From NCBI RefSeq assembly GCF_000010625.1, contig NC_010296.1, positions 1,020,001 to 1,052,000 of the forward strand: a DNA stretch of 32,000 bases, in the 5' to 3' direction. This document shows, in pieces, positions 276 through 31,226 of this stretch. Source of the stretch: Microcystis aeruginosa NIES-843. Lineage in GTDB: Bacteria > Cyanobacteriota > Cyanobacteriia > Cyanobacteriales > Microcystaceae. Under the pieces are notes generated by a model. That model saw only the letters and a program-made list of their open reading frames with translations, searched no databases and had not been told where the DNA came from. A program made the translations under genes and the position numbers. Position 1 is the stretch's first letter. Every line of letters starts with the position of its first letter.

Positions 276-490
276 AGGGTCTGCTGAAAAAGTTTTTCCT
301 GGGGGCAGGGTGTGGGGTGTGGGGTGTGGGGTGTGGGGTTTTACCGGTTTTGAGGAGGCCAATTACCTAATTTTCAGGGAAAAAGTCCCGGAATTTTCCC
401 CCCGATCCCCCCAATGGCCGGCACTTTTTGAGGGTAAAAAAGTCCAAAAGTCTTATCCAACAAGGTTTTTAGATTTATTCAGCAGACCCT
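276..490. mobile_element. MITE-A copy 1 (215 bp) with terminal inverted repeats agggtctgctgaa / ttcagcagaccct
   Basis: 13-bp perfect TIRs at 276-288 and 478-490. Flanking ctacttag is duplicated on both sides (8-bp TSD candidate). A near-identical copy in inverted orientation lies at 8966-9180. The interior carries a (GGGGTGT)n run. Confidence 0.85.
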
Positions 491-5349: not shown

Positions 5350-6816
5350 CTAAAATGTCGGATGAATGCCCCCGCTAAATTTTTCGACAAGACATCAACC
5401 TTTGCGGGGGATGAAATCCGACCAAGATATTAACTGCGAAGCACTATTTTAATTCTACCATTTGTAGGTAAACTGTGTTATACTTAATTTAGCCAAAGGT
5501 CGAGGATGTTAGATGCTAGTCGTAGAAGCAAAGCTAAAAAACGGAACACCAGAGCAATATCACCAGCTTGATGAAGCTATCAAAACTTCTCAGTTTGTGC
5601 GTAACTCTTGTGTTCGTTATTGGCGGTTCAATCAAGGGACAACCCGTAATGATCTCCAAAAACTTTGTGCTGTACTAGCTAACAATAAAGAGACCCCTTG
5701 GGTTAATAAATTAAACTCTCAAGCTCGTCAATCGGCTGCTGATAGAGCCTGGCAATCAATTAATAGGTTTTACCAGAATTGTCATGCCAAGATACCAGGG
5801 GAAAAGGGTTTTCCCCGATTTAAAAAACCTAGTCGTTCGGTTGAATACAAACTAACGGGCTACAAACTATCTGAGGATCGACGTAAAATCAGATTTACTG
5901 ACGGTTTTAAAGCAGGAGAATTTGATTTATGGTGTAGTCAAAAAACCTTAGTTTATTATTCAGATCAACAGATTAAACGGGTAAGAGTTGTTAGACGTGC
6001 CGATGGTTATTATTGTCAGTTTTTGATTGACGTAGAACGGCAAGAATACCATGAACCAACGGGACAAATAACAGGAATTGACTTAGGTTTAAAGGAATTT
6101 TATACCGATGCCCAAGGTAATACTGTAGAGAATCCACGTTATTTAAGAAAGTCAGAAAAACGACTGAAAAAAGCACAAAGGAGATTATCAAAACGATTTC
6201 GCAAAGGAAAGAAACAGTCTAACAACTATCACAAGCAACGGATAAAAGTAGCTAGGCTTCATCTTAAGGTATCAAGACAACGTAAAGACAAAGCAATTAA
6301 AGACGCTTTGGCGTTAGTCCAGTCTAATGATCTGGTAGTCTATGAAGCTTTAAAGGTAAGAAACTTAGTCAAAAACCGTAAGCTTGCCAAGTCGATTTCT
6401 GATGCTTCTTGGTATCAATTCACCGAATGGTTGAATTATTTTGCCAAGATTTATCGGATTGTTTGTATTGCTGTTCCTCCCCATTTTACTAGCCAAGATT
6501 GTTCAGTTTGTGGGACGAGAGTTCAAAAAACCTTAAGCACTAGAACTCATCAATGTCCTAATTGTCAAACAGTCTTAGATAGGGATCATAATGCAGCAAT
6601 AAATATTCTTAAAAAAGGGTTGAAATATTTGGGAAATCATCTCAACGGTACTGTTGGGCAAACAGAAACCGACCCAAACGCCTTGGGAGAGTCCGGCCTC
6701 TGGATTCTTAATGGAGACATTGAGAATCTAAGCTGTCTCGTTGAACAAGGAATTTCCGATAGTGATCTGGAAAGAATCTCCCGTCACAGCGTAGCTTGAC
6801 GGTGGGAGTATGTCAA
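5350..6816 (+). mobile_element. IS200/IS605-family element carrying tnpB only (no tnpA), copy 1, 1467 bp
   Basis: Boundaries come from alignment with copy 2 (15126-16624). The shared left end starts at ctaaaat(g/a)tcggatgaat with a subterminal hairpin (cccccgc 5369-5375 / gcggggg 5404-5410). The shared right end stops at gtatgTCAA. No terminal inverted repeats or TSD, as expected for this family. An extended -10 sequence TGtTATACT lies at 5476-5484 upstream of tnpB. Confidence 0.85.
5513..6799 (+). CDS. tnpB: TnpB (IS605 OrfB-type RNA-guided RuvC nuclease), 428 aa
   Basis: RuvC-like D/E/D contexts are present (ITGIDLGLKEF; LVVYEALKVRNL; DRDHNAAINIL), with a CxxC...CxxC zinc finger (CSVCG...CPNC) between the second and third motifs. 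The length and K/R-rich central helix are typical of this family. Confidence 0.9.
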   Translation: MLVVEAKLKNGTPEQYHQLDEAIKTSQFVRNSCVRYWRFNQGTTRNDLQKLCAVLANNKETPWVNKLNSQARQSAADRAWQSINRFYQNCHAKIPGEKGFPRFKKPSRSVEYKLTGYKLSEDRRKIRFTDGFKAGEFDLWCSQKTLVYYSDQQIKRVRVVRRADGYYCQFLIDVERQEYHEPTGQITGIDLGLKEFYTDAQGNTVENPRYLRKSEKRLKKAQRRLSKRFRKGKKQSNNYHKQRIKVARLHLKVSRQRKDKAIKDALALVQSNDLVVYEALKVRNLVKNRKLAKSISDASWYQFTEWLNYFAKIYRIVCIAVPPHFTSQDCSVCGTRVQKTLSTRTHQCPNCQTVLDRDHNAAINILKKGLKYLGNHLNGTVGQTETDPNALGESGLWILNGDIENLSCLVEQGISDSDLERISRHSVA

Positions 6817-8931: not shown

Positions 8932-8965
8932 GAGATTTAGGGACAAGATAAGCTCTTGAGTATTT

Positions 8966-9180
8966 AGGGTTGGCTGAATAAATCTAAAAACCTTGTTGGG
9001 TAAGACTTTTAGACTTTTTGTCAATCAAAAAGTACCAGCGATTGGAGTGATCAGGGGGAAAATTCAGGGACTTTTTCCCTGAAAATTAGGTAATTGGCCA
9101 CCTCAAAACCGGTAAAACCCCACACCCCACACCCCACACCCCACACCCTGCCCCCAGGAAAAACTTTTTCAGCAGACCCT
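8966..9180. mobile_element. MITE-A copy 2 (215 bp), inverted relative to copy 1
   Basis: Its reverse complement aligns end to end with 276-490, including the (CCCCACA)n run and the TIRs (agggttggctgaa / ttcagcagaccct). Flanks are (g/c)tatttag on both sides, a 7-of-8 bp TSD candidate. Confidence 0.85.
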
Positions 9181-9196
9181 ATTTAGTCAGTTAAAT

Positions 9197-10702
9197 CTAC
9201 ATTTCGTAGCCAAACTTATTGGCATCTACTTCTTGTAAATTAATATCGATTAAACCGTATTCTAACCAGCGTTGGGAAACCTTGACCGCCATGGCAGGAT
9301 CCGACTCCAAAGGTTCCCCCCATTCGTGGTCGGTTTCGGGATACATTTTAGTGGTGGCATCAATTCCCATTCTCCCCCCCAAACCGACCTTTTCGCTGGC
9401 AAAATCGAGGCTATCAAAGGGGGTTTCCGGGAGAATAAACACATCGCGAACCGGATCCACTTTAGAACTAATTGCCCAAACCACTTGCCGGGGGTCGCGA
9501 ATATTAATCTCCTTATCGACGACGATGACAAATTTAGTATAGGTGAACTGGGGTAAGGCACTCCAAAAAGCTAAGGCCGCTCGCCGCGCTTGTCCGGGAT
9601 AGGCTTTATCAATGGAGATAATCGCCGCTTTATAGCTTAAAGCTTCCATCGGCAGGAAAAAATCCCTGATTTCCGACACCTGTTGCCGTAAAATCGGCGT
9701 ATAAATACGATTAAGAGCGATCGCCATCATCGCTTCTTCCTTGGGAGGACGACCACTAAAAGTGGTCAAATAAATGGGGTCACGACGATGGGTCATGCAG
9801 TGGAAATGAATCAGGGGTGAATCTTCCACACCGCCATAGTAACCCATGTGATCACCAAAGGGTCCATCTGGCAATACCTCTCCGGGAGTAATTGTTCCTT
9901 CGAGGACGATTTCTGAGTCGGCCGGCACTTCCAAAGCAAGGGTTTTACATTTGGCTAACTGTACCCCGGAACCGCCGTACAATCCCGCAAACAGCCATTC
10001 GGAGAGATCTACGGGGATAGGAGTGGCAGCGGCCATGATAATCAGAGGATCTACCCCTAAAGCGATGGCTATTTCTAATTTTTTGCCCATCTGTGCCGCT
10101 TTTCGCAGGTGACGCGCCCCACCGCGCACGGACAACCAGTGGACGGTCATGGTATTGTGAGACTGTAGCTGTAGGCGATAGACACCGACATTAGGGGTTC
10201 CCGTTTCGCAATCTTTAGTAATTACTAGCCCTAGGGTGATAATCTGGCCTGCATCGCCCGGATAGGGACGAATCATCGGAATTTTCTTTAAATCTACTTC
10301 ATCCCCTTCTAAAATCACCTGTTGACAGGCAGGAAAAAAGTTACGGTTGGGTTTCGCTTTCAGGACATCAAATAAAACTTTACCAAAATCGATCGCTTGG
10401 GAGAGTTTTTTCGGCGGTTTCGGTTGTTGCAAGAGGGCGAGTTTTTTGCCTAAATCTTCCAATTCTTCGGGTTTATTCAGGTTCATCGCCCAACAGATGC
10501 GTTCTACCGTTCCCATCAGGTTAATAGCGACGGGAAACTCTGCTCCTTGCACGTTTTCAAACAGTAGGGCCGGTCCCCCCACCTGCAGCATCCGATTAGC
10601 GATCTCGGCAATTTCTAAATCGGCAGAGACCGATGCACTAATGCGGCGTAATTGGCCACGATCTTCTAAAAGCTTAATAAATCCTCGTAAGTCTCTAGCC
10701 AT
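9197..10702 (-). CDS. UbiD-family (prenylated-FMN dependent) aromatic acid decarboxylase, 501 aa
   Basis: Full-length resemblance to UbiD-type decarboxylases (N-terminal MARDLRGFIKLLE..GQL.RI; central GG.RH..K). In cyanobacteria this family is linked to plastoquinone biosynthesis. Confidence 0.85.
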   Translation of the reverse strand: MARDLRGFIKLLEDRGQLRRISASVSADLEIAEIANRMLQVGGPALLFENVQGAEFPVAINLMGTVERICWAMNLNKPEELEDLGKKLALLQQPKPPKKLSQAIDFGKVLFDVLKAKPNRNFFPACQQVILEGDEVDLKKIPMIRPYPGDAGQIITLGLVITKDCETGTPNVGVYRLQLQSHNTMTVHWLSVRGGARHLRKAAQMGKKLEIAIALGVDPLIIMAAATPIPVDLSEWLFAGLYGGSGVQLAKCKTLALEVPADSEIVLEGTITPGEVLPDGPFGDHMGYYGGVEDSPLIHFHCMTHRRDPIYLTTFSGRPPKEEAMMAIALNRIYTPILRQQVSEIRDFFLPMEALSYKAAIISIDKAYPGQARRAALAFWSALPQFTYTKFVIVVDKEINIRDPRQVVWAISSKVDPVRDVFILPETPFDSLDFASEKVGLGGRMGIDATTKMYPETDHEWGEPLESDPAMAVKVSQRWLEYGLIDINLQEVDANKFGYEM

Positions 10703-10882: not shown

Positions 10883-11977
10883 ATGATTAAGGATATTGAA
10901 ATTAGTAATTTTAGATGTTTTGAGCATACCAAAATTGAAGGTTTTGAGCGAGTTAATTTAATTGGTGGTAAAAACAATTCAGGGAAAACTGCCTTGTTAG
11001 AGGCAATATTTTTATATAGTTATCCCTATCCAAATACTATTCATCCCTACATCAGAGGAATCATTCGTAGGCAATCTTTAGCAGTTGTTCAGGCTGTTCC
11101 CAAAAATGCCTGGGATAATTTATTATTCAATCTTGATAGAGAAAATATTATTGAGTTAAAAGGCTCCCAATCTAATCAAGGGGATAAATTGGTAAAAATA
11201 TCGATTTCCGATTCTCTTAAAGATAGCGTTTTAGGAATCTCTGAAGACTTACAAAAATTATACGATTTTATCGCTAAAAATAAATCAGTTATTTCTATCT
11301 TAAATATTCACACAAGTTTTGACCATGATAATGACTCAAATGATGGTCAACTGAACTATTTTTTAATTGCTAGTTCTGAGGGAATACTCGCTTTGCCTGA
11401 TGCGGGTGATGAGGAACCAGTAATCATTGCCGCATCTGTCAATAAATCTTTGGAAGAATTGAGCGAGTCCTATACTAAAATAGTTTTTAATGAACAGGAA
11501 GAAGAAGTGCTAAAAGCTCTACAAATTCTCGATCCGTCCATTGAAAAAATAGAAAGTTTTTTTCTGGGTGAACCAAATTTATATCTGAAAAGAAAAGAGA
11601 GAAAACGCCTACCCATATCTCTGTTTGGTGAAGCTATTAATCGTCTGATAGAGATGATTTTTGCTCTACTCATCAATCCTAAAAAAATTATTTTTATCGA
11701 TGAAATAGAAAATGGTCTTCACTATACTGCTTACCCAGATATTTGGAAAACTTTATTCCGATTAGCTATCGAACTAGATAGCCAAATTTTTGCCACAACC
11801 CACAGTTTAGAGATGATCCAAGCTTTTGCCGATGTGGGGTTAGAATATTATCCAGAAGAGGGGGCCTATTTTGAACTAGCAAGGAGTCCCAGAACTGATA
11901 AAATTATCGGTATTAAAAGTGAATTAGATATCTTAGATTACGCTCTCAAGCATAATGATCGAATCAGAGGTGAGTAG
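10883..11977 (+). CDS. ABC/AAA-type ATPase of the AAA_15/AAA_21 (OLD N-terminal-like) kind, 364 aa
   Basis: ATG at 10883 follows GGAGG (10874-10878). N-terminal MIKDIEISNFRCF..., Walker A GGKNNSGKTALLEA, signature-like SLFGEAINRL, Walker B IIFIDEIENGLH, then FATTHS. The upstream extension to 10778 lacks an RBS and any conserved look. Confidence 0.8.
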   Translation: MIKDIEISNFRCFEHTKIEGFERVNLIGGKNNSGKTALLEAIFLYSYPYPNTIHPYIRGIIRRQSLAVVQAVPKNAWDNLLFNLDRENIIELKGSQSNQGDKLVKISISDSLKDSVLGISEDLQKLYDFIAKNKSVISILNIHTSFDHDNDSNDGQLNYFLIASSEGILALPDAGDEEPVIIAASVNKSLEELSESYTKIVFNEQEEEVLKALQILDPSIEKIESFFLGEPNLYLKRKERKRLPISLFGEAINRLIEMIFALLINPKKIIFIDEIENGLHYTAYPDIWKTLFRLAIELDSQIFATTHSLEMIQAFADVGLEYYPEEGAYFELARSPRTDKIIGIKSELDILDYALKHNDRIRGE

Positions 11978-12849
11978 AATCGTGGCTAATGTAATAATTG
12001 TTGAAAGTCAAGATGATGCGGCTTTTTTACGAGCTATTATTGAGCATATTAATGAATCGAATCATTTAACGATAACTATTGTTGAATTTTATATTCTAGA
12101 CGGAATAGAACGAGAAAATTATCGTAGCCTTGAACAACGACTGAAACGACTTAATAACGGGAGCATCTCACCTTTGCAATGAGCATAAATACTTAGTGGA
12201 AAAATAGGCTTTTCGAGGGTAATTCTTGTTTTAATTCTCCATGTACGCAGTCTTTAAAAGCCTCTATTTCGTTCCAAGACACGATTAAGAGTGGCTTTTA
12301 GGCTAAGTATAATTACTTATCGCGTAAGTGAGATGCTCCCTTAATAACACCCTGCTCAAAGATGATATTCAAAAGATAGGTATTGTTTTAGATTTAGACG
12401 AACAAACCAGACAAGAAAGACTTGCTCTGGTTAGTCAATGTATTCAAAGAGTTTTTAGAGAAGCAGTCAGGATAGATGATACCCAAAAGCTATTTCAATT
12501 AAATGCTTCTACGAATACTCAAATAGGTTGTCATTTTCTTCATGTTAATGAACAGGGGGAACTAGAGACAGTGTTGAGAGAAATTAAAACCCAAGATTCT
12601 CCCCATGCTGATTGTGTAGAAGCTTGGCGATCCTGTCTTGCACAAAAAAATATTGATATAAATCGTAAAAAAATTGATAAATTGTGGATTCAAAACTATA
12701 TCAGGGAAGATACACCATCACAGAATGAAAAAAGAGAGGCTAAGAAATATTGTAATTTATCCCATGCTTTAACCAAAAAAGACATTTGGAACTTTGAGCA
12801 TGAAGTATTAAATGAACTCAAAGAATTTTTACAACTATTTGCTGTCTAA
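11955..12849 (+). pseudogene. Toprim-like partner of the ATPase (DUF4435/DUF4276/DUF3226/RloB-like class), interrupted by a 182-bp MITE; reconstructs to 234 aa
   Basis: It overlaps the ATPase stop by 23 nt. The N-terminus NVIIVESQDDAAFL and the downstream IGIVLDLDEQ give an E...DxD Toprim-like pattern. Removing 12159-12340 and one TSD copy joins ...EQRLKRLNN to TLLKDDIQK... in frame (checked codon by codon). Confidence 0.7.
12159..12340. mobile_element. MITE (182 bp) with 13-bp perfect TIRs gggagcatctcac / gtgagatgctccc and an 8-bp TSD ttaataac
   Basis: TIRs at 12159-12171 and 12328-12340. TSD at 12151-12158 and 12341-12348. No coding capacity. It introduces a stop after 7 extra codons. Confidence 0.9.
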
Positions 12850-12850
12850 T

Positions 12851-12879
12851 CAAAAATCCCCCTAGAAATCTAGAGGGAT
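12851..12879 (-). terminator. Terminator hairpin for psbV, shared with the convergent plus-strand gene
   Basis: Stem atccccctag / ctagagggat (one mismatch) with a 4-nt loop. On the minus strand it is followed by TTTTT. It lies between the stops at 12849 (+) and 12902 (-). Confidence 0.65.
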
Positions 12880-12901
12880 TGAGAGATATATGGAGGGCAA
12901 T

Positions 12902-13387
12902 TTAGAAGTAAATTGTACCCCCCCAGCGCTCGTCTAGACGGGGAGCAACCAACATATAAGCGGCGACGTTATACACATCATCTTCGGTCAGATTGCGTAA
13001 TTCTGGGAAGATATCCGGACGGCTAACATTGGGATGGAGTTCGCTTAGATCATCTTCACCATCGTAACTGGTGGGATGTTCTAGATAATCAATCAATGCT
13101 AACAGATTATCTCTGGGAGGTTCCGCTTTTGCTAGATCACCCAGACCCAAACTGACGTTATTATTAGTTTTGGTTTTACCTTGCAGGTGACACTTAGTAC
13201 AATTGGCGACAAAAAGTTTCTGTCCTTCCGTCGCTTGTTCAGAAGTCAAAGTCACCGATTCCCCTGCGTCATTGAGGGTGATGGTGAGGGTTTTTTCATT
13301 GAGTTCTAAGGCACTAGCGCCGTTAAGATTGAATTGTAATACAAAAAAGACTACAGCGATCGCTGCTACAATCAAACGTTTGATCAT
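12902..13387 (-). CDS. psbV: Photosystem II cytochrome c-550
   Basis: Signal peptide, haem-binding CTKCH, and a C-terminus ...RLDERWGGTIYF typical of PsbV. Confidence 0.95.
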   Translation of the reverse strand: MIKRLIVAAIAVVFFVLQFNLNGASALELNEKTLTITLNDAGESVTLTSEQATEGQKLFVANCTKCHLQGKTKTNNNVSLGLGDLAKAEPPRDNLLALIDYLEHPTSYDGEDDLSELHPNVSRPDIFPELRNLTEDDVYNVAAYMLVAPRLDERWGGTIYF

Positions 13388-13722: not shown

Positions 13723-13800
13723 AGTCTAACACACCCACCAAGGATAGAGAATACTTATTAGTCACCATAATTATCATGCCATTGCCGGGGACATTCTTAA

Positions 13801-13899
13801 CAGTGATCAGTTATCAGTGATCAGTGATCAGTGATCAGTTGTGAGTTTTCAGTTCACTGATTACTGTTTACTGTTTACTGATCACTGAAAAAAGCTCCC
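13801..13899. repeat. Heptamer-repeat hairpin element H1: (cagtgat/cagttat)n arm, spacer, complementary (actgatc/actgttt)n arm, then tgaaaaaagctccc
   Basis: Read directly. The arms are mutually complementary. The same architecture recurs at 19344-19469 and 31005-31226. Confidence 0.85.
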
Positions 13900-13903
13900 A
13901 TCA

Positions 13904-13965
13904 CCCTAAACCCCATCTCCCCACACCCCACACCCTACACCCCACACCCTACACCCCATTCCCCC
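13904..13965. repeat. C-rich degenerate repeat (ccccaca / ccctaca units), giving G-runs on the minus strand
   Basis: ccctaaaccccatctccccacaccccacaccctacaccccacaccctacaccccattccccc was read directly. It is related to the run inside MITE-A. Confidence 0.8.
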
Positions 13966-14177
13966 AAAATTCCCTAATTTTCCCGACTTTTGCCTTTTTA
14001 TTCCCTAAGATAGAGACTCGTGTAAACAAATTTAATTAAAATCGCAAAAAACCTGAAAAAATACTAAAATGTGATTAAGAATGTTATTTTTAGCGTTGTA
14101 AGGCTAAATCTTTCTCGATAACATTGTAATCATACCTCCACACTCTTTTGTACAAAGGACTGCACCTTTGTTAACTT

Positions 14178-15125: not shown

Positions 15126-16624
15126 CTAAAATATCGGATGAATACCCCCGCTACATTTTTCGATAAGATACTCACAAAAATTAGCGGGGGATGAAATCCG
15201 ACCAGAATATCAATGACCCTGAGCGAAGTCGAAGGGTCAGCAACGGAGCATCGGTTTAATTCCACCATCTGTGGACAAACTGTGTTATAATCTACTTAAC
15301 CAATGGTCGAGAATTGTTAGATGCTAGTCGTAGAAGCAAAGCTAAAAAACGGGACACTAGAGCAATATCACCGGCTTGATGAAGCAATTAGAACATCTCA
15401 GTTTGTGCGTAACTCTTGTGTTCGTTATTGGATGGATCATAAGGGTACAACCCGCAATGATCTCCAAAAACTTTGCTCGGTACTAGCTAACAATAAAGAG
15501 ACCCCTTGGGTTAATAAATTAAACTCACAAGCACGTCAATCGGCTGCTGATAGAGCCTGGCAATCAATTAATCGGTTTTACCAGAATTGTCATGCCAAGA
15601 TACCGGGAAAAAAGGGGTTTCCTCGGTTCAAAAAGCATAGTCGTTCCGTTGAGTATAAACTAACAGGCTACCAACTATCTGATGATAGACGTAAAATCAG
15701 ATTTACTGATGGCTTTAAAGCAGGAGAATTTGATTTATGGTGTAGTCAAAAGACGTTAGTTTATTATTCAGAACAACAGATTAGACGGGTAAGAGTTGTT
15801 AGACGTGCTGACGGTTATTATTGCCAGTTTCTGATTGACGTAGAACGGCAAGAATACCATAAACCAACGGGACAAATAACAGGAATTGACTTAGGGTTAA
15901 AGGAATTTTATACCGATGCTCAAGGTAATACTGTAGAGAATCCACGTTATTTAAGAAAGTCAGAAAAACGACTTCAAAAAGCACAACGACGATTATCTAA
16001 GAAATTCCGTAAAGGAAAGAAACAGTCTAAAAACTATCATAAGCAACGGGTAAAGGTAGCCAAGCTTCATCTTAAAGTATCAAGACAACGTAAAGACAAA
16101 GCAATTAAAGACGCTTTGGCGTTAGTCCAGTCTAATGATCTGGTAGTCTATGAAGCTTTAAAGGTAAGAAACTTAGTCAAAAACCGTAAGCTTGCCAAGT
16201 CGATTTCCGATGCTTCTTGGTATCAATTCACTGAATGGTTGAATTATTTTGCTAAGATTTATCGGATTGTTTGTGTTGCTGTACCACCGCATTTCACTTC
16301 TCAAGATTGTTCAGTTTGTGGGACGAGAGTTCAAAAAACCTTAAGCACTAGAACTCATCAATGTCCTAATTGTCAAACAGTCTTAGATAGGGATCATAAT
16401 GCAGCAATAAATATTCTTAAAAAAGGGTTGAAATATTTGGGAAATCATCTCAACGGTACTGTTGGGCAAACAGAAACCGACCCAAACGCCTTGGGAGAGT
16501 CCGGCCTCTGGATTTTCAGTGGAGACATTGAGAATCTAAGCTGTCTCGTTGAACAAGGAATTTCCGATAGTGATCTGGAAAGAATCCCCCGTCACAGCGT
16601 AGCTTGACGGTGGGAGTATGTCAA
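15126..16624 (+). mobile_element. IS200/IS605-family tnpB-only element, copy 2, 1499 bp
   Basis: Preceded by TTAC (15122-15125) and ends in TCAA (16621-16624); these are the cleavage motifs I recall for IS608-type elements. Left-end hairpin cccccgcta / tagcggggg. Colinear with copy 1 at a constant 9808-bp offset from tnpB to the right end. The left end is ~32 bp longer because of a palindromic insert (15214-15239). Extended -10 TGtTATAAT lies near 15283-15291. Confidence 0.85.
15321..16607 (+). CDS. tnpB: TnpB (IS605 OrfB-type RNA-guided nuclease), 428 aa, about 95% identical to copy 1
   Basis: Same length as copy 1, with all RuvC and zinc-finger motifs intact. I counted roughly 22 amino-acid differences, mostly in the N-terminal two thirds. 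Confidence 0.9.
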   Translation: MLVVEAKLKNGTLEQYHRLDEAIRTSQFVRNSCVRYWMDHKGTTRNDLQKLCSVLANNKETPWVNKLNSQARQSAADRAWQSINRFYQNCHAKIPGKKGFPRFKKHSRSVEYKLTGYQLSDDRRKIRFTDGFKAGEFDLWCSQKTLVYYSEQQIRRVRVVRRADGYYCQFLIDVERQEYHKPTGQITGIDLGLKEFYTDAQGNTVENPRYLRKSEKRLQKAQRRLSKKFRKGKKQSKNYHKQRVKVAKLHLKVSRQRKDKAIKDALALVQSNDLVVYEALKVRNLVKNRKLAKSISDASWYQFTEWLNYFAKIYRIVCVAVPPHFTSQDCSVCGTRVQKTLSTRTHQCPNCQTVLDRDHNAAINILKKGLKYLGNHLNGTVGQTETDPNALGESGLWIFSGDIENLSCLVEQGISDSDLERIPRHSVA

Positions 16625-17940: not shown

Positions 17941-17956
17941 GCAGCGAGCAAAAATA

Positions 17957-18017
17957 CTGGTTACTGATAACTGATAACTGGTTACTGATAACTGATAACT
18001 GATAACTGATAACTGAA
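17957..18017. repeat. Heptamer tandem repeat (ctgataa / ctggtta units, about 8 copies), single arm
   Basis: Read directly. It abuts the GTG start of tgt (18021). Confidence 0.9.
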
Positions 18018-19333: not shown

Positions 19334-19343
19334 ATCGACCCTC

Positions 19344-19469
19344 AATTATCAGTTATCAGTGAGCAGTTATCAGTTATCAGTTATCGGATTTGAGTTTTAA
19401 GTGAAATGACATCTTTTCAATTATCACTGATCACTGTTTACTGATCACTGTTTATTGAAAAAGCTTCCC
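19344..19469. repeat. Heptamer-repeat hairpin element H2
   Basis: (cagttat)n arm, ggatttgagttttaagt core, complementary (actgatc/actgttt)n arm, then tgaaaaagcttccc. It fills the gap between the convergent stops of psbK (19333) and the pentapeptide gene (19473). Confidence 0.85.
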
Positions 19470-19997: not shown

Positions 19998-21360
19998 TGG
20001 GACTTAAACGCCAAATAAAGATCAAATCGAGTATAATCGTTAAAGAGTAAGCACTTTACGTTGAAAGATCAGCGATGAAAGAGACAACCCCAGCCGCGAT
20101 GCCCCCATGCTTTGACCGATGGTGTCGGCGGTTTGACAATTGCTTCAAAAACGAAGCGCAAAAAAACGGCTTCAGACAATATTTAGGAGGATTATTAGGG
20201 GAAAGTGAGAGGAAAAACCTCACTCAAATGGCCAATAATGCCGTCGGAGTAGTTTATAACCGATTACATCACTTTTTGACCGAATCTCCCTGGTCAGACC
20301 GTCAGGTGAATGAATGTCGGTTGCAAGTGATGAACCAATGCCGCCAGACGCAAATCCCCCGAGGATTTTCCCTGATTGTCGATGACTCAGGACATCGAAA
20401 AAGTGGCAATCTGACCGCCGGAGTTGGCAGGCAGTACCTAGGAGAAATTGGCAAGACAGACAACGGAATAGTCGCCGTCACTACCCATCTCTACGACGGC
20501 AAAAAAAGTGTCCCCCTAGACATTGAAATTTATCAACCGGCTAGTTCCTTAGCCGAGGGGAAAGAAGACAAAGAATTTAAGAAGAAACCAGAGATAGCGA
20601 TAGATTTAATTGACCGGAGCTTAACCAGAGGCTATCGACCGAAAATCGTCTTAATAGATGCTGGTTATGGCAACAACACAAATTTTCTCAAAGCCCTGGA
20701 AGAAAGAAAGCTAAAATACTTAGGAGGATTGGCAAAAAATCGAAAAGTAATTATTGAAAAAGAAGGGGGTGTGGAAGAAACAATCCAGCTTGAGCAACTA
20801 GCAAAAAGCCTATCAGAAAAGGATTGGGAGAAAATCACCCTAAATCTAGATAAAGAAAAAACGGTTTGGGTAGCGGTATTCAGAGCGAAAATATCTCAAC
20901 TAGAAGGAGAAAGGAACTTGGCGATCGTCATGAATGCAAGTTCAATGGAAAAAGCCACAGAGGTGGACTATTTCATCACCAATGTAGTTGAGGCAGATAC
21001 AGTAACAGCTTCGTGGATAGTGAGGACTTACACCGAAAGAAATTGGGTGGAAGTATTCTACCGAGAAGCCAAAGGATGGTTAGGGTTAAGGGAATATCAA
21101 GTCAGGGATAAACGAAGCTTACTTCGTCATTTTATCCTGGTGTTTTGTGCCTATACATTTATCCTGTGGCATAAGTTAACTGGGGGATTGCAAAGGCAGT
21201 GGGCGAATCGACCTTTAAACACTTTTGTGGAAGCCTTGGAAGCTTTTCGGACAGCGATGTCTTTCCGTTTCTTTGAGTGGCTGACCGAGAATCGGGATGT
21301 GTTTGCCGCTTACAAAGCCAGTTTAGGCTTTGTTTGGGCTTGAAATTTGTTTAAGTCCCA
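19998..21360 (+). mobile_element. IS701-family (IS4-related) insertion sequence, 1363 bp, with 4-bp TSD CTAA
   Basis: Ends tgggacttaaac... / ...gtttaagtccca are imperfect TIRs. CTAA occurs at 19994-19997 and 21361-21364. A single DDE transposase ORF lies inside. Confidence 0.85.
20075..21343 (+). CDS. IS701-family DDE transposase, 422 aa
   Basis: Acidic-residue contexts LIVDDSGHRK and VLIDAGYG, plus YTERNWVEVFYREAKG (the Y-R-E-K signature of IS4/IS701-type enzymes). The N-terminus matches the IS701-like pattern (…FRQYLGGLL…ERKN…). Confidence 0.85.
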   Translation: MKETTPAAMPPCFDRWCRRFDNCFKNEAQKNGFRQYLGGLLGESERKNLTQMANNAVGVVYNRLHHFLTESPWSDRQVNECRLQVMNQCRQTQIPRGFSLIVDDSGHRKSGNLTAGVGRQYLGEIGKTDNGIVAVTTHLYDGKKSVPLDIEIYQPASSLAEGKEDKEFKKKPEIAIDLIDRSLTRGYRPKIVLIDAGYGNNTNFLKALEERKLKYLGGLAKNRKVIIEKEGGVEETIQLEQLAKSLSEKDWEKITLNLDKEKTVWVAVFRAKISQLEGERNLAIVMNASSMEKATEVDYFITNVVEADTVTASWIVRTYTERNWVEVFYREAKGWLGLREYQVRDKRSLLRHFILVFCAYTFILWHKLTGGLQRQWANRPLNTFVEALEAFRTAMSFRFFEWLTENRDVFAAYKASLGFVWA

Positions 21361-22115: not shown

Positions 22116-23126
22116 CTAACTATAACCGAGCATGGTACTGATTAACTGCCGGACCGTAGTGCTAGGATGGTTCTCCAAATTGCTTGGTAAAGCCCATTCT
22201 GAGTCAAGATAGGACATCTTCAGTAAATCTCTCACTTGTTTTGATTTAGCTTGTCCTGTACTTTGAGCAACCCCAAAAGCCTGATAAAGTTCTGTGGCCG
22301 AAATGTGGGGATTTTGAGTAGGATCGAAGAGAAAATTGACCATTCCTAGGGCGTGAGTAATGCCAGCAGCCCAGGAATTAGCCTTACCTTTTTCTAGGGG
22401 AGAGGGACGCTTACGAGCTAAAGTTGCAGTTAATTGGCGAATAAGTTGGGCGTATTCTTCATTAAGATATTGAGCGGCAAATTTATCGGTAATAGCGGTA
22501 ATTTCTTGATATTTGACCTGCATTGCCTTGGGAACATTTTCCGATTTAGAAACAGCTGGAAGCGTTTTTTTCGATGTTGCTGCCGCTTGCTGTTTAGCAC
22601 GTTGTTCAGCATTATATTTTTCTTGAAAAGCTGTTAAACCCTCCTGACTGGTGATATCAAAACCCTGCTGATGCGCTTGTAACAGGAGATTTTTCATAAA
22701 ACCGGCACTGTTGGTATCGTTCATCAGTTGACCAAAGCGATCTCCTAATTGCTCTAAATATTTAATAATAGCCTTAGCCTGAGTTAATTTATATTCTCGT
22801 CCCAAAAATTGCCAAAAACTAATTAATTCAGGGATAGCATCTTCGGTTTCCGTCGGATCGAGTATAGTAATTTTGCGTGGTAAAATCTTCTCCATTAAGA
22901 TTTGCACATCTGCCTTAGTCATGGTAGCAAGGGTATAACCTTCATAGAGATAGCCCAACTCAATCAAGGTAGCAATCCAACCACCACCTTCTTCTTTTTC
23001 TTGATAATAGGCCTCTCCCTCTGGCGAATTGATATATTCTTCGATCGCTCCAGTAATATAATCTTCTAATAAGGGTTCGGCTTCATCGTAGTCTAAATTA
23101 TCTAATTGTCGGATATTAAAAGTCAT
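22116..23126 (-). CDS. Conserved hypothetical protein, 336 aa (C-terminal region may be a DUF6398-type domain)
   Basis: Long clean ORF with a K/Q-rich linker. The C-terminal segment ...KGKANSWAAGITHALGMVNFLFD...AFGVAQSTGQAKSKQVRDLL recalls that domain from memory only. Confidence 0.6.
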   Translation of the reverse strand: MTFNIRQLDNLDYDEAEPLLEDYITGAIEEYINSPEGEAYYQEKEEGGGWIATLIELGYLYEGYTLATMTKADVQILMEKILPRKITILDPTETEDAIPELISFWQFLGREYKLTQAKAIIKYLEQLGDRFGQLMNDTNSAGFMKNLLLQAHQQGFDITSQEGLTAFQEKYNAEQRAKQQAAATSKKTLPAVSKSENVPKAMQVKYQEITAITDKFAAQYLNEEYAQLIRQLTATLARKRPSPLEKGKANSWAAGITHALGMVNFLFDPTQNPHISATELYQAFGVAQSTGQAKSKQVRDLLKMSYLDSEWALPSNLENHPSTTVRQLISTMLGYS

Positions 23127-25721: not shown

Positions 25722-25831
25722 TATAGCGTTTTTCAGTCTGCTGAGGTACAAAAGTTATGGGTTTTAGGCAAAAGGCAAGAGGCAAAAGGGAAGAAAAATA
25801 GGTGTACCTCACTAGCTTAGGAAACGCTATA
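25722..25831. mobile_element. MITE-D (110 bp) with ~28-bp imperfect TIRs tatagcgttt...gaggtac / gtacctc...aaacgctata
   Basis: Read directly. The interior (ggcaaaaggcaagaggcaaaagg) is related to the MITE-B core. It interrupts the second copy of the stub sequence. Confidence 0.75.
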
Positions 25832-25961
25832 TTTTAATTGGGGACAATTTGCCAAAAAAGCTTTCACTTTGTCATCTCACTCTAAGGGTGAAGTTAGCTG
25901 TCTGGCAATAACGCAACTGCCAACTTGACCGGATTATCTGCTGGTAGATGTGACCCATTTT

Positions 25962-27134: not shown

Positions 27135-27755
27135 ATTGCCAAAGAAGACAATTTCCTAGAAGTACAATTGAGGTTTTATTCCCGTTTCTTCAGTGAAATC
27201 TTCCTCTATCTCCACCAAACGGACTTAAGCAACAACTGGCAGGGAGTAGTTATTTATCCTCGGCGTTCAGTGGAAAGCGTAGAGACTGCTTGTTATGGGG
27301 AGTTAATCAACTCCAGCAGGATTTTACGTTTTTATCTCGAGGAATTAAGGGAAGGGGAATCCCTGGGAATATCAATGTTACAGTTAATTGTAGCACCAAC
27401 CGCCAGAGCGATCGAGCAAGGAAAACAATTAATTCCACGGATTAGAGAAGAATTCCCTAATCTCAAACAACAGCCAGAACTTTTAGAATTGATAGAGACA
27501 ATTTTGGTTTATAAGTTACCCCAAGTCAGTAGAAAGTAGATAGAAGCGATGTTTAGTTTAAGTGATTTAAAACAAACTAAAGTGTATCAGGAAGCTTTAG
27601 AAGAAGGTAGAGAGGAGGGCCGACAAGAAGGTGAATTAGCAGCAAAATTAGCCTCTATTCCTCGTTTATTGGCATTAGGATTAAACTTTGAACAGATAGC
27701 ACAGGCTTTAGAATTAGATATCGAACAGGTTAGACAAGCAACTCAAAGGGAATAG
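27135..27755 (+). pseudogene. Rpn-family (DUF2887 + DUF4351, PD-(D/E)xK putative transposase) gene remnant, N-terminally truncated with an in-frame TAG
   Basis: …LEVQLRFYSRFFSEIFLYL… and …ILVYKLPQVSRK*IEAMFSLSDLKQTKVYQEALEEGR… match the cyanobacterial Rpn-like family pattern. Stops lie upstream of ~27135 and an in-frame TAG at 27537-27539. Confidence 0.7.
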
Positions 27756-28011: not shown

Positions 28012-28363
28012 GCAGGGAAAACAATTAATTCCACGGATTAGAGAAGAATTCCCTAATCTCAAACAACAGCAAGAACTTTTAGAATTGATAGAGACAATCT
28101 TGGTTTATAAGTTACCCCAAGTCAGTAGAAAGTAGATAGAAGCGATGTTTAGTTTAAGTGATTTAAAACAAACTAAAGTGTATCAGGAAGCTTTAGAAGA
28201 AGGTAGAGAGGAGGGCCGACAAGAAGGTGAATTAGCGGCAAAATTAGCCTCTATTCCTCGTTTATTGGCATTAGGATTAAACTTTGAACAGATAGCACAA
28301 GCTTTAGAATTAGATATCGAACAGGTTAGACAAGCAACTCAAAGGGAATAGGAAAGGTTCAAA
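28012..28363 (+). repeat. Right copy of the 352-bp duplication, containing the identical 68-aa DUF4351 ORF 28145..28351
   Basis: See the left copy. Inside the 68-aa ORF the only two differences are synonymous (gca/gcg Ala, cag/caa Gln). Confidence 0.9.
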
Positions 28364-31004: not shown

Positions 31005-31226
31005 ACAATTATCAGTAATCGGTGATCAGATTTGAGTTTTTAAGTAGGTGGGTGGAATTAAATATAAGATGAACGTAGGTTGGGTTGAAGCATGAAACCC
31101 AACTCCCGCATGGGTTACGCTACCGCTAACCCATCCTACAAATAATTGTGCCTCCCTACTTAGTGAGCGGTATTAAGTAGAAAATTGCCGTTTTCTTGGC
31201 ACTGATCACTGATTACTGATTACTGT
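31005..31226. repeat. Heptamer-repeat hairpin element H3, interrupted by MITE-C copy 2
   Basis: Left arm caattatcagtaatcggtgatcag plus core atttgagttttt aagt. Right arm cactgatcactgattactgattactg. It lies between the convergent stops at 30992 and 31228. Confidence 0.8.
31071..31160. mobile_element. MITE-C copy 2 (90 bp), nested inside H3
   Basis: Aligns with the reverse complement of 28651-28740. Differences cluster in the central 12 nt. Confidence 0.8.

Follow-up and report, generated by a model that had tools for sequence, protein, structure and literature searches.

A stretch of 32,000 nucleotides from Microcystis aeruginosa NIES-843 (contig NC_010296.1, positions 1,020,001 to 1,052,000; hereafter "the window") contains a two-gene locus in which an ATPase gene is followed by a partner gene that is split by a MITE (miniature inverted-repeat transposable element). 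The ATPase gene (10883-11977, plus strand; start codon ATG at 10883, stop codon at 11975-11977) encodes an ATP-binding cassette (ABC) ATPase of the Rad50/SMC type with 364 amino acids and is uninterrupted. The partner gene, which belongs to the DUF3226/Toprim type, consists of a 5' fragment (11955-12158, plus strand; codons 1-68 counted from an ATG at 11955) that encodes the first strand of the predicted fold with residues E17 and D21, and a 3' fragment (12341-12849, plus strand; codons 69-234 and the stop codon) that encodes the D83xD85 motif, a GELE motif (residues 138-141), and a helical C-terminal domain. The two fragments are separated by a 182-bp element (12159-12340), here called MITE-A. 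We consider it likely that the locus is a candidate defense module of an ATPase and a Toprim protein (PDC-M38/DUF3226), similar to PARIS and AbiL, which has been inactivated in this strain by an ISKra4-related MITE. The coordinates and numbers given for the locus in an earlier note, including the intact ATPase frame, all agree with the list of open reading frames (ORFs), the sequence itself, and a script-based check.

The start of the partner gene needs comment. In the window, the frame that opens with ATG 11955 ends after 75 codons and overlaps the ATPase gene by 23 nt. The earlier note had reported this overlap, which holds for that start codon; however, the gene more likely starts at an in-frame GTG (11982), which would leave a gap of 4 nt behind the stop codon of the ATPase gene, because the starts of the homologs align there (V10 of the partner; about residue 9-10) and because a Shine-Dalgarno-like sequence (AGAGGTGAG, 11966-11974, plus strand) probably serves this codon. 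The GTG was also chosen by one gene caller in another Microcystis assembly (L002), and in 80 other genomes, the two genes usually overlap by 4 nt. A scan for promoters and terminators between 10650 and 12950 gave counts near the expectation from shuffled sequences; no weight was given to the highest-ranking promoter-like site (12285-12313), which falls within the MITE itself.

MITE-A has no ORF of its own and is bordered by terminal inverted repeats (TIRs) that are perfect over 13 bp (GGGAGCATCTCAC / GTGAGATGCTCCC; 12159-12171 and 12328-12340); the 13-mer occurs only at these two sites of the window, where 0.01 occurrences would be expected by chance. The element is flanked by the two copies of an 8-bp target-site duplication (TSD; TTAATAAC) at 12151-12158 and 12341-12348, both of which were located by script. 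In-silico excision of the element together with one TSD copy yields a single ORF of 234 amino acids that ends at 12849, and alignment to the window identified the corresponding empty site, with one TTAATAAC and no insert, in 13 other Microcystis loci. An uninterrupted partner gene for 234 amino acids with 97-98% identity is present in four genomes (L012-L015), namely, those of LSC13-02, M015S2, M. ichthyoblabe FBCC-A1114, and M. wesenbergii Mw_QC_B. Both the precise insertion described in the earlier note and an uninterrupted allele in other strains are thereby documented.

The disrupted allele is not confined to the window. At least nine contigs encode exactly the same product of 75 amino acids, which comprises 68 native residues and the MITE-derived tail GSISPLQ. 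Six of these contigs represent five separate sequencing runs and one metagenome of the Joint Genome Institute (JGI), which rules out an assembly artifact as the source of the disrupted allele.

MITE-A has all the properties of a MITE: it is short and non-coding, possesses TIRs and a TSD, occurs in many copies at different sites, and is absent from the empty sites of relatives. A scan of metagenome contigs for exact TIRs in the arrangement TIR-N(135-165)-TIR yielded 65 stretches with at least 67 copies. MITE-A is a young and active family, because 44 of the 67 copies have exact TSDs of 8-9 bp at targets of unrelated sequence and 28 share at least 96% identity with the copy in the window, with many being identical. 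Among the other loci compared, there was no full copy of MITE-A; a truncated relative is present in the ATPase gene of L015. One contig (L117:1838-2215) carries two tandem copies of MITE-A that are 8 bp apart (GAGTTTAA). This spacer is found in front of the first copy as well, and its final six bases (GTTTAA) stand behind the second; the arrangement suggests either insertion beside an existing copy or its duplication.

The parent family of MITE-A is probably the ISKra4 family of insertion sequences (ISs), a link suggested by TIR similarity only. A 1,282-bp relative (L143:11544-12825) has ORFs that match the ISKra4-family transposase model NF033572 (6e-62; 210 bits versus a cut-off of 205) and TIRs (GGGAGCATCCCAA / CTGGGATGCTCCC, beginning GGGAGCATCCCA) that share the outermost 9-10 bases with those of MITE-A (beginning GGGAGCATC). 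Over all 13 positions, 11 and 10 bases are the same. The TSDs made by MITE-A are 8-9 bp long. The exact TIRs are not matched, and no full-length autonomous IS with the exact TIRs of MITE-A was recovered.

The ATPase possesses a Walker A motif (GGKNNSGKT, residues 28-36), a Walker B motif (IIFIDE), and an H-loop (TTHS). It matches the Pfam families AAA_15 (4.7e-23) and AAA_21 (9e-17) and also AAA_23 and the N terminus of SMC_N. Among the PADLOC models, the best matches are AbiLi (PDLC02336; 2.3e-59), to which it aligns with residues 1-356 against positions 1-334 of 340, and PDC-M38A (PDLC04611; 4.7e-54; residues 1-339); the matches to AriA, HEC-02A, mad3, GajA, PtuA, and Old are weaker and partial. 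The NCBIfam models for RecF, Rad50, MAD3, and similar proteins match only a P-loop segment of about 45 residues. The AlphaFold2 model, built from 48 homologs, has a predicted local distance difference test score (pLDDT) of 85 and a predicted template modeling score (pTM) of 0.87; its nearest folds in the PDB are PtuA of Septu (8sux, 5e-12), Rad50, the ATPases of retrons IA/Eco8, SMC heads, and the OLD protein of Thermus (Ts OLD; 6p74, 4e-10).

The reconstructed partner protein matches Pfam DUF3226 (PF11536) with 66.1 bits (cut-off, 27 bits) over residues 12-230 and positions 2-204 of the 208-position profile, and it matches the PADLOC model PDC-M38B (PDLC04623) at 1.3e-8. The earlier note could not place either protein in a named family and considered the partner short. 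Both points require correction: the ATPase belongs to AAA_15/AAA_21, AbiLi, and PDC-M38A, the partner to DUF3226 and PDC-M38B, and a length of 220-240 amino acids is the norm among the 936 members of the partner family that were obtained by profile search. In an alignment of 58 partner homologs, 13 residues are invariant (E17, D21, G79, D83, D85, G138, C157, C164, K179, W181, Y185, R187, and D189), and the GELE motif is nearly so.

The AlphaFold2 model of an intact allele (P0001; pLDDT 91.4, pTM 0.88) predicts a strand at residues 11-16 that ends at E17 and a third strand at residues 75-83 that ends in D83-L-D85, with alternating helices between the strands and a helical domain from residue 140 onward; the order of strands and helices in this model is that of the Toprim layout. 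When the 58 homologs were scanned individually against Pfam, all of them matched DUF3226, 17 matched Toprim (PF01751; best, 9.3e-6), 6 OLD-like_TOPRIM, 4 Toprim_4, and 2 RloB; the PADLOC models matched were PDC-M38B (all 58; best, 2.4e-16), mad4 (20; best, 8.6e-6), AbiLii (3), and AriB (1). One member, P0112, exceeds the curated Pfam threshold for Toprim (26.2 versus 23.1 bits; residues 4-93, positions 2-86 of 96), and the partner from the window itself has no Pfam Toprim match at E ≤ 1. DUF3226 is probably a divergent Toprim family, mainly because the invariant E...DxD residues occupy the right structural positions and because members of the family match Toprim profiles. The Toprim-like nature of the partner, which the earlier note had deduced from short motifs, is borne out by both the predicted fold and the putative catalytic acidic residues.

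Across cyanobacteria, and in several other phyla too, the two genes form a translationally coupled pair whose members nearly always lie side by side. In a sample of one genome per species (the best 80 of 255 loci), a homolog of the ATPase gene is located directly upstream on the same strand in 79 cases, typically with the 4-nt overlap mentioned above; the sole exception is cut by a contig end. The pair is therefore co-conserved. Most hosts in the sample are cyanobacteria (Microcystis, Planktothrix, Microcoleus, Anabaena/Dolichospermum, Nostoc, Pseudanabaena, Crocosphaera, Spirulina, and Chamaesiphon); others are Desulfobacterales, Saprospiraceae, relatives of Thiomargarita and Beggiatoa, Brachyspira, Neisseriaceae, and a metagenome-assembled genome (MAG) of Saccharibacteria. 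The same pairing is found in L007-L011 and L157-L160. In Aliarcobacter, the pair adjoins genes of a relaxase and a type IV secretion system, and in L007 (L007:4911-6705; GCA_054019275), it sits within a biosynthetic operon, between leuC (aconitase family large subunit) and leuD.

Judging from the profile matches, the locus is a member of the Pfam family DUF3226 and of the PADLOC candidate system PDC-M38: the ATPase matches PDC-M38A, the reconstructed or intact partner matches PDC-M38B, and the two genes are adjacent and co-oriented. The window differs from that system in its interrupted second gene, and PDC-M38 is itself a computational candidate. The family is catalogued but uncharacterized, as no paper naming DUF3226 or PDC-M38 was found in the searched literature; a search on MITEs and defense in Microcystis likewise returned nothing relevant.

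The locus shares its architectural class with AbiL, PARIS (AriA/AriB), and MAD3/MAD4 of MADS, which lends support to the assignment in the earlier note to ATPase and Toprim-like pairs of the AbiL, PARIS, or split-OLD type. In the literature, AbiL and MADS3-4 have been grouped with PARIS as systems that combine an ABC ATPase with a TOPRIM protein (PMC11464382, PMC13064643). The ATPase in the window matches AbiLi of Lactococcus end to end, and the order of an ATPase gene followed by a Toprim gene is the same, but the partner has its own helical C-terminal domain and no match to AbiLii or RloB at E ≤ 1; it is therefore not AbiL in the strict sense. PARIS, which combines the ABC ATPase AriA with the DUF4435 Toprim tRNA nuclease AriB, is alike in architecture and likely also in its logic of an ATPase scaffold and sensor with a releasable Toprim effector. 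However, the locus is not PARIS, because the partner has no DUF4435 match in Pfam and the AriA match is only partial (PADLOC, 5e-25, residues 88-312 against positions 149-373; PDB 8ux9, E = 3e-3, C-terminal part only); moreover, the ATPase has 364 residues, compared with 464 in AriA.

Further PADLOC systems with an ATPase and a Toprim-like protein are MADS, a multi-gene, methylation-associated system, and HEC-01. The ATPase matches mad3 (1.5e-14) and HEC-01A (5e-12), and 20 of the 58 partners match mad4, but these scores are much weaker than those for PDC-M38, and the other MADS genes are absent from the locus. The OLD nucleases, GajA of Gabija, and the reverse transcriptase (RT)-Toprim protein of retron Eco2 contain the same two types of domains, and the model of the ATPase resembles Ts OLD and retron Eco8. 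Nevertheless, the locus does not encode an OLD or Gabija protein, because the ATPase and Toprim domains are on two separate proteins, both in the window and in all 79 paired loci; neither a UvrD/GajB helicase nor a reverse transcriptase is adjacent. PtuA of Septu is the closest solved fold of the ATPase, but its partner is an HNH nuclease, whereas that in the window is a Toprim protein.

In PARIS, a hexamer of AriA holds AriB and senses a phage protein, which leads to the release of AriB, which then dimerizes and cuts tRNA-Lys; AriB alone is only mildly toxic and requires AriA for activity (PMC11464382). By analogy, the ATPase encoded by intact Microcystis alleles may form an oligomer that keeps the Toprim protein in an inactive state and detects a cue from the phage; once set free in an ATP-dependent manner, the Toprim protein would become active as a metal-dependent nuclease, cut host nucleic acid (tRNA or DNA), and abort the infection. 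The ATPase would thus act as sensor and chaperone, and the DUF3226 protein as a metal-dependent nuclease effector. In the window, MITE-A lies between codons 68 and 69 and parts the catalytic glutamate from the DxD motif: the 5' fragment, with its 68 native residues, contains E17 and lacks the DxD, and the 3' fragment lacks strand 1. Therefore, the nuclease cannot be made, and the module is non-functional whatever the ATPase does; the locus in the window is a dead candidate defense system with an orphan ATPase.

Several observations weigh against the interpretation of the pair as an ATPase and Toprim defense module. The structural support for a Toprim fold is weak: no Foldseek match of the partner model in the PDB falls below E = 1e-3, and the best one, retron Eco2 RT-Toprim (9i2f), has E = 8.5e-3, a probability of 0.95, and a TM-score of 0.43-0.47. 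A profile of the DUF3226 alignment yielded only chance matches among the PDB sequences (E > 0.7), and a Foldseek search of the partner model against the viral structures in BFVD returned nothing below E = 0.04. The partner from the window matches AriB only at 1.7e-3 (residues 13-90) and AbiLii not at all; its mad4 match is equally faint (2.8e-3). The pair stands as a solitary cassette amid the housekeeping genes of Planktothrix, Oscillatoria, and Microcystis, and guilt by association lends no support to a defense role in these genomes. A tblastn search with the partner against plasmid and phage collections gave only three weak matches in Acinetobacter (31% identity). We infer the defense role and the sensor-effector mechanism solely from homology and architecture; the assignment to defense is based on the homology to systems of the AbiL and PARIS class and on the listing as a PADLOC candidate.

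The genomic setting was evaluated in a census of 150 ORFs flanking 45 loci outside Microcystis. The neighbors are mainly LysR regulators, DUF4139/4140, phosphoglycerate-mutase-like proteins, acetate kinase, FabD, AroA, Xfp, and MnmE. Matches to defense models are scattered (PDC-S03 in 5, dGTPase in 4, AbiLi/HEC-01A ATPase in 2, and DrmA in 1); Pfam Uma2 matched five neighbors, which may or may not be the five PDC-S03 proteins. Membership in a defense island was therefore rejected, and carriage of the pair on a mobile element is unsupported, as the plasmid and phage collections contain hardly any instance of it. The term "small defense islet" in the earlier note is apt insofar as the pair forms a small, solitary cassette, but no defense-island context was found.

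All Microcystis alleles that were compared occupy the same position between the genes for UbiD and PsbV, and they differ widely in their state. L012, L013, and L014 carry an intact pair. In at least six assemblies (L001-L006), which include M. wesenbergii TW10 and a complete genome, a second element (MITE-B; 113 bp, TIR TAGCGTTT/AAACGCTA, TA duplication) has inserted at codon 119 of the nuclease gene; in the alignment, its insertion point corresponds to a TA dinucleotide at 12500-12501 that is unoccupied in the window. Elsewhere in the window, a copy of MITE-B flanked by TA is located at about 25724-25836. In L162 (P0004/P0006), the nuclease is native up to residue 131 and continues into an element beginning with GGCTCTTCGGTTT, which has an ISL3-like TIR and recurs in other Microcystis contigs. 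On the metagenome contig L163 (P0013), the nuclease is interrupted at residue 79 by a repeat that recurs in the window (357-484), and the nuclease of L161 (P0003) breaks at about residue 159. In strain T1-4 (L016), a 5' deletion has removed residues 8-48 (approximate) of the nuclease, including E17 and D21.

Other alleles have exchanged parts of the cassette. In the same strain T1-4 (L016:2874-4561), the ATPase has kept near-identical ends, but its middle (about residues 42-290) has given way to a much more divergent version, so that the identity of the whole protein is only 53%. Both genes are intact in L020 and L027 (both :2914-4702), whose ATPases are 90-94% identical to that in the window, but an allele with only 40-42% identity takes the place of the last ~17 ATPase codons and of almost the entire nuclease gene. 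This alternative nuclease allele (P0009) is common, with 281 member sequences. In L027, a 230-bp MITE (L027:2550-2779; TIR GGCTCTTC.../...GAAGAGCC, TSD GGCAGTT) lies in the promoter region, some 130 nt upstream from where the ATPase gene starts. The element in L162 begins with this type of TIR.

The ATPase gene is affected as well. In L015, a truncated relative of MITE-A with the same right TIR follows codon 23 of the ATPase gene, and the nuclease gene is intact. Frameshifts in both directions (-1 and +1) occur in P0149/P0151 and P0150 at a run of seven thymines equivalent to 11557-11563 (plus strand), which is in frame in the window; beyond ...EKIESFF, the C termini of these proteins follow the two alternative frames. 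The DNA of L170 (336-1037) confirms six thymines in this run, and L170 also carries the nuclease break at codon 159. The run could be a mutational hot spot; sequencing error is less likely. In addition, the ATPase P0145 carries two deletions, both of them in frame, and a deletion in P0154/L171 spans both genes and fuses the ATPase at about residue 207 to the alternative nuclease allele. The locus is thus a collection of many independently decayed or cassette-swapped alleles, a pattern that fits a dispensable accessory pair on which selection fluctuates, in a genome rich in active MITEs and IS elements.

This variation bears on the alternative explanations. The pair might be a selfish addiction module similar to toxin-antitoxin (TA) systems, with the ATPase as antitoxin and the Toprim protein as toxin and without a dedicated anti-phage role. 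Pairs of AAA and TOPRIM_OLD proteins indeed behaved as toxin and antitoxin in toxicity-neutralization assays in E. coli (PMC10440598), and the isolated position amid housekeeping genes (in one case, even with leuC and leuD on either side) resembles that of small mobile TA cassettes. However, the two roles are not exclusive, as PARIS and AbiL are defense systems with a TA-like mechanism (PMC11464382, PMC13064643); moreover, the pair is rare on plasmids, and the broken ATPase next to an intact nuclease gene in L015 speaks against a constitutively active toxin, so that we regard a purely selfish module as improbable. A housekeeping role, in which a RecF/Rad50-like ATPase would cooperate with a RecR- or RNase M5-like Toprim protein in repair or RNA processing, would agree with the housekeeping neighbors and the matches of the N-terminal segment to RecF, Rad50, and SMC. 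Nonetheless, those of RecF and Rad50 cover only ~45 N-terminal residues, whereas the best matches over the whole length are defense models, and the pair is patchy, strain-variable, and repeatedly pseudogenized or cassette-swapped within one genus, unlike essential or core genes; this explanation is therefore very improbable. The notion that MITE-A is a reversible switch, with recombination between the 8-bp TSD copies turning the nuclease gene back on, is even harder to credit. Removal of the element and one TSD copy in silico does yield the exact wild-type sequence of other strains, but exact restoration is implied by any insertion that generates a TSD. Excision left no trace in the data analyzed, several independent contigs share the disrupted allele in fixed form, and other alleles have been irreversibly destroyed by deletions.

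More weight can be given, though still only tentatively and against our expectation, to a selected loss of the effector: if the Toprim nuclease carried a cost of autoimmunity or toxicity, knock-outs of its gene would be favored, and the harmless ATPase would persist. Six independent disruptions of the nuclease gene (MITE-A at codon 68/69, L163 at codon 79, MITE-B at codon 119, L162 at codon 131, L161 at codon 159, and the 5' deletion of L016) agree with this view, as does the intact ATPase in the four knock-outs where it was checked (window, L001-L006, L161, and L016). The ATPase frameshift of L170 looks like a second hit, because the nuclease gene of this allele was already broken at codon 159. 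However, L015 combines a MITE in its ATPase gene with an intact nuclease gene, an arrangement that ought not to occur if the effector were toxic, and the ATPase is also broken by the frameshifts at the thymine run, the in-frame deletions of P0145, and the gene-fusing deletion of P0154/L171. With about six independent lesions in the nuclease gene (705 nt) and four in the ATPase gene (1,095 nt), a binomial test on target size gives p = 0.15; the value drops to p = 0.017 when a single lesion is counted for the ATPase.

Among the alleles whose other gene was checked, four are broken only in the nuclease and one only in the ATPase, a split that is not significant. Sampling began with the nuclease gene, which inflated its count; a reciprocal search with the ATPase as query found broken ATPase alleles. 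For this reason, and because the homopolymer frameshifts and the deletions in MAGs may include errors, no firm conclusion can be drawn, and the preferential loss of the effector is a non-significant trend and not a result. In PARIS, AriB needs AriA and is only mildly toxic alone (PMC11464382); by analogy, loss of the ATPase would disarm the module just as well. The L015 allele shows that an intact nuclease gene without a working ATPase is tolerated, which fits this precedent. The suggestion in the earlier note that only the effector was inactivated owing to its toxicity is thus not established.

The flanks of the locus are housekeeping genes, as previously described. On the left is a gene of the UbiD decarboxylase family (9197-10702, minus strand; UbiD_N/UbiD/UbiD_C in Pfam scans of an ortholog), and on the right is the gene for cytochrome c550 (psbV; 12902-13387, minus strand), with a terminator-like hairpin at 12855-12880. 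The synteny shared among Microcystis strains comprises the ndh genes, the UbiD gene, the pair of ATPase and partner genes, psbV, remA, and gmk. Close homologs of the proteins in the window carry the names M. wesenbergii or M. aeruginosa.

The window contains several other repeats and mobile elements. A 224-nt inverted repeat pair (268-491 and 8965-9188; 92% complementary) is probably another MITE family; part of it (357-484) recurs at the break in the DUF3226 gene of L163 and upstream of the UbiD gene in L001-L004. Two TnpB-type genes encoding 428 amino acids (5513-6799 and 15321-16607; OrfB_IS605 and Cas12f1-like TNB domains) share upstream sequence (5401-5507 / 15181-15314) and a conserved 57-nt block at their 3' ends (6760-6816 and 16568-16624), of which a third, solo copy is present at 494-550; the block may be the right end or the omega-RNA region of an IS605-family element. 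Another IS is represented by a DDE_5/DDE_Tnp_1 transposase gene (20075-21343; 422 amino acids). Intergenic arrays of 7-nt units are located at 13797-13890, 17953-18016, 19342-19465, and 31184-31226 and also at 301-343, 9104-9155, and 13897-13970; they are of two kinds (CAGTGAT/ACTGATA type and CCCCACA type), and some form inverted pairs. A 300-nt direct repeat with internal 36-nt sub-repeats (27416-27715 and 28012-28311; 98% identical) has its copies 596 nt apart, and an ORF on the minus strand (22116-23126; 335 amino acids) encodes a C-terminal DUF6398 domain (3e-44).

Given this mobilome, with two TnpB genes, a DDE transposase gene, and several MITE copies in the window, the knock-out of a gene by a MITE in Microcystis is unsurprising. 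The instance in the window is a dead copy that reflects fairly ordinary decay of a defense gene and adds no new mechanism; the most reusable points are that, at a single locus, cassettes have been swapped and inactivations have arisen repeatedly and independently. For annotation, genes that are publicly labeled "AAA family ATPase" or "chromosome segregation protein SMC" and "hypothetical / DUF3226" can be read as a candidate defense pair of the AbiL/PARIS class, and DUF3226 as a family of Toprim nucleases. The family is widespread (936 partner proteins, 255 genome loci) and strictly paired with the ATPase.

It is possible, albeit doubtful, that DUF3226/PDC-M38 constitutes a distinct immune class of ATPase and Toprim proteins, a solitary cassette among core genes that is enriched in cyanobacteria, whose parts are swapped between strains, and in which, in Microcystis, first hits fall preferentially on the nuclease gene and disarm the system, owing to the cost of the effector. 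In that case, the alleles of a single locus would form a natural series (on, off, and re-armed) in which the cost of abortive-infection immunity and its turnover in a bloom-forming cyanobacterium could be studied. The intact, swapped, and broken alleles at one fixed position in Microcystis offer material on the cost of such a system and on how MITEs shape the defense repertoire.

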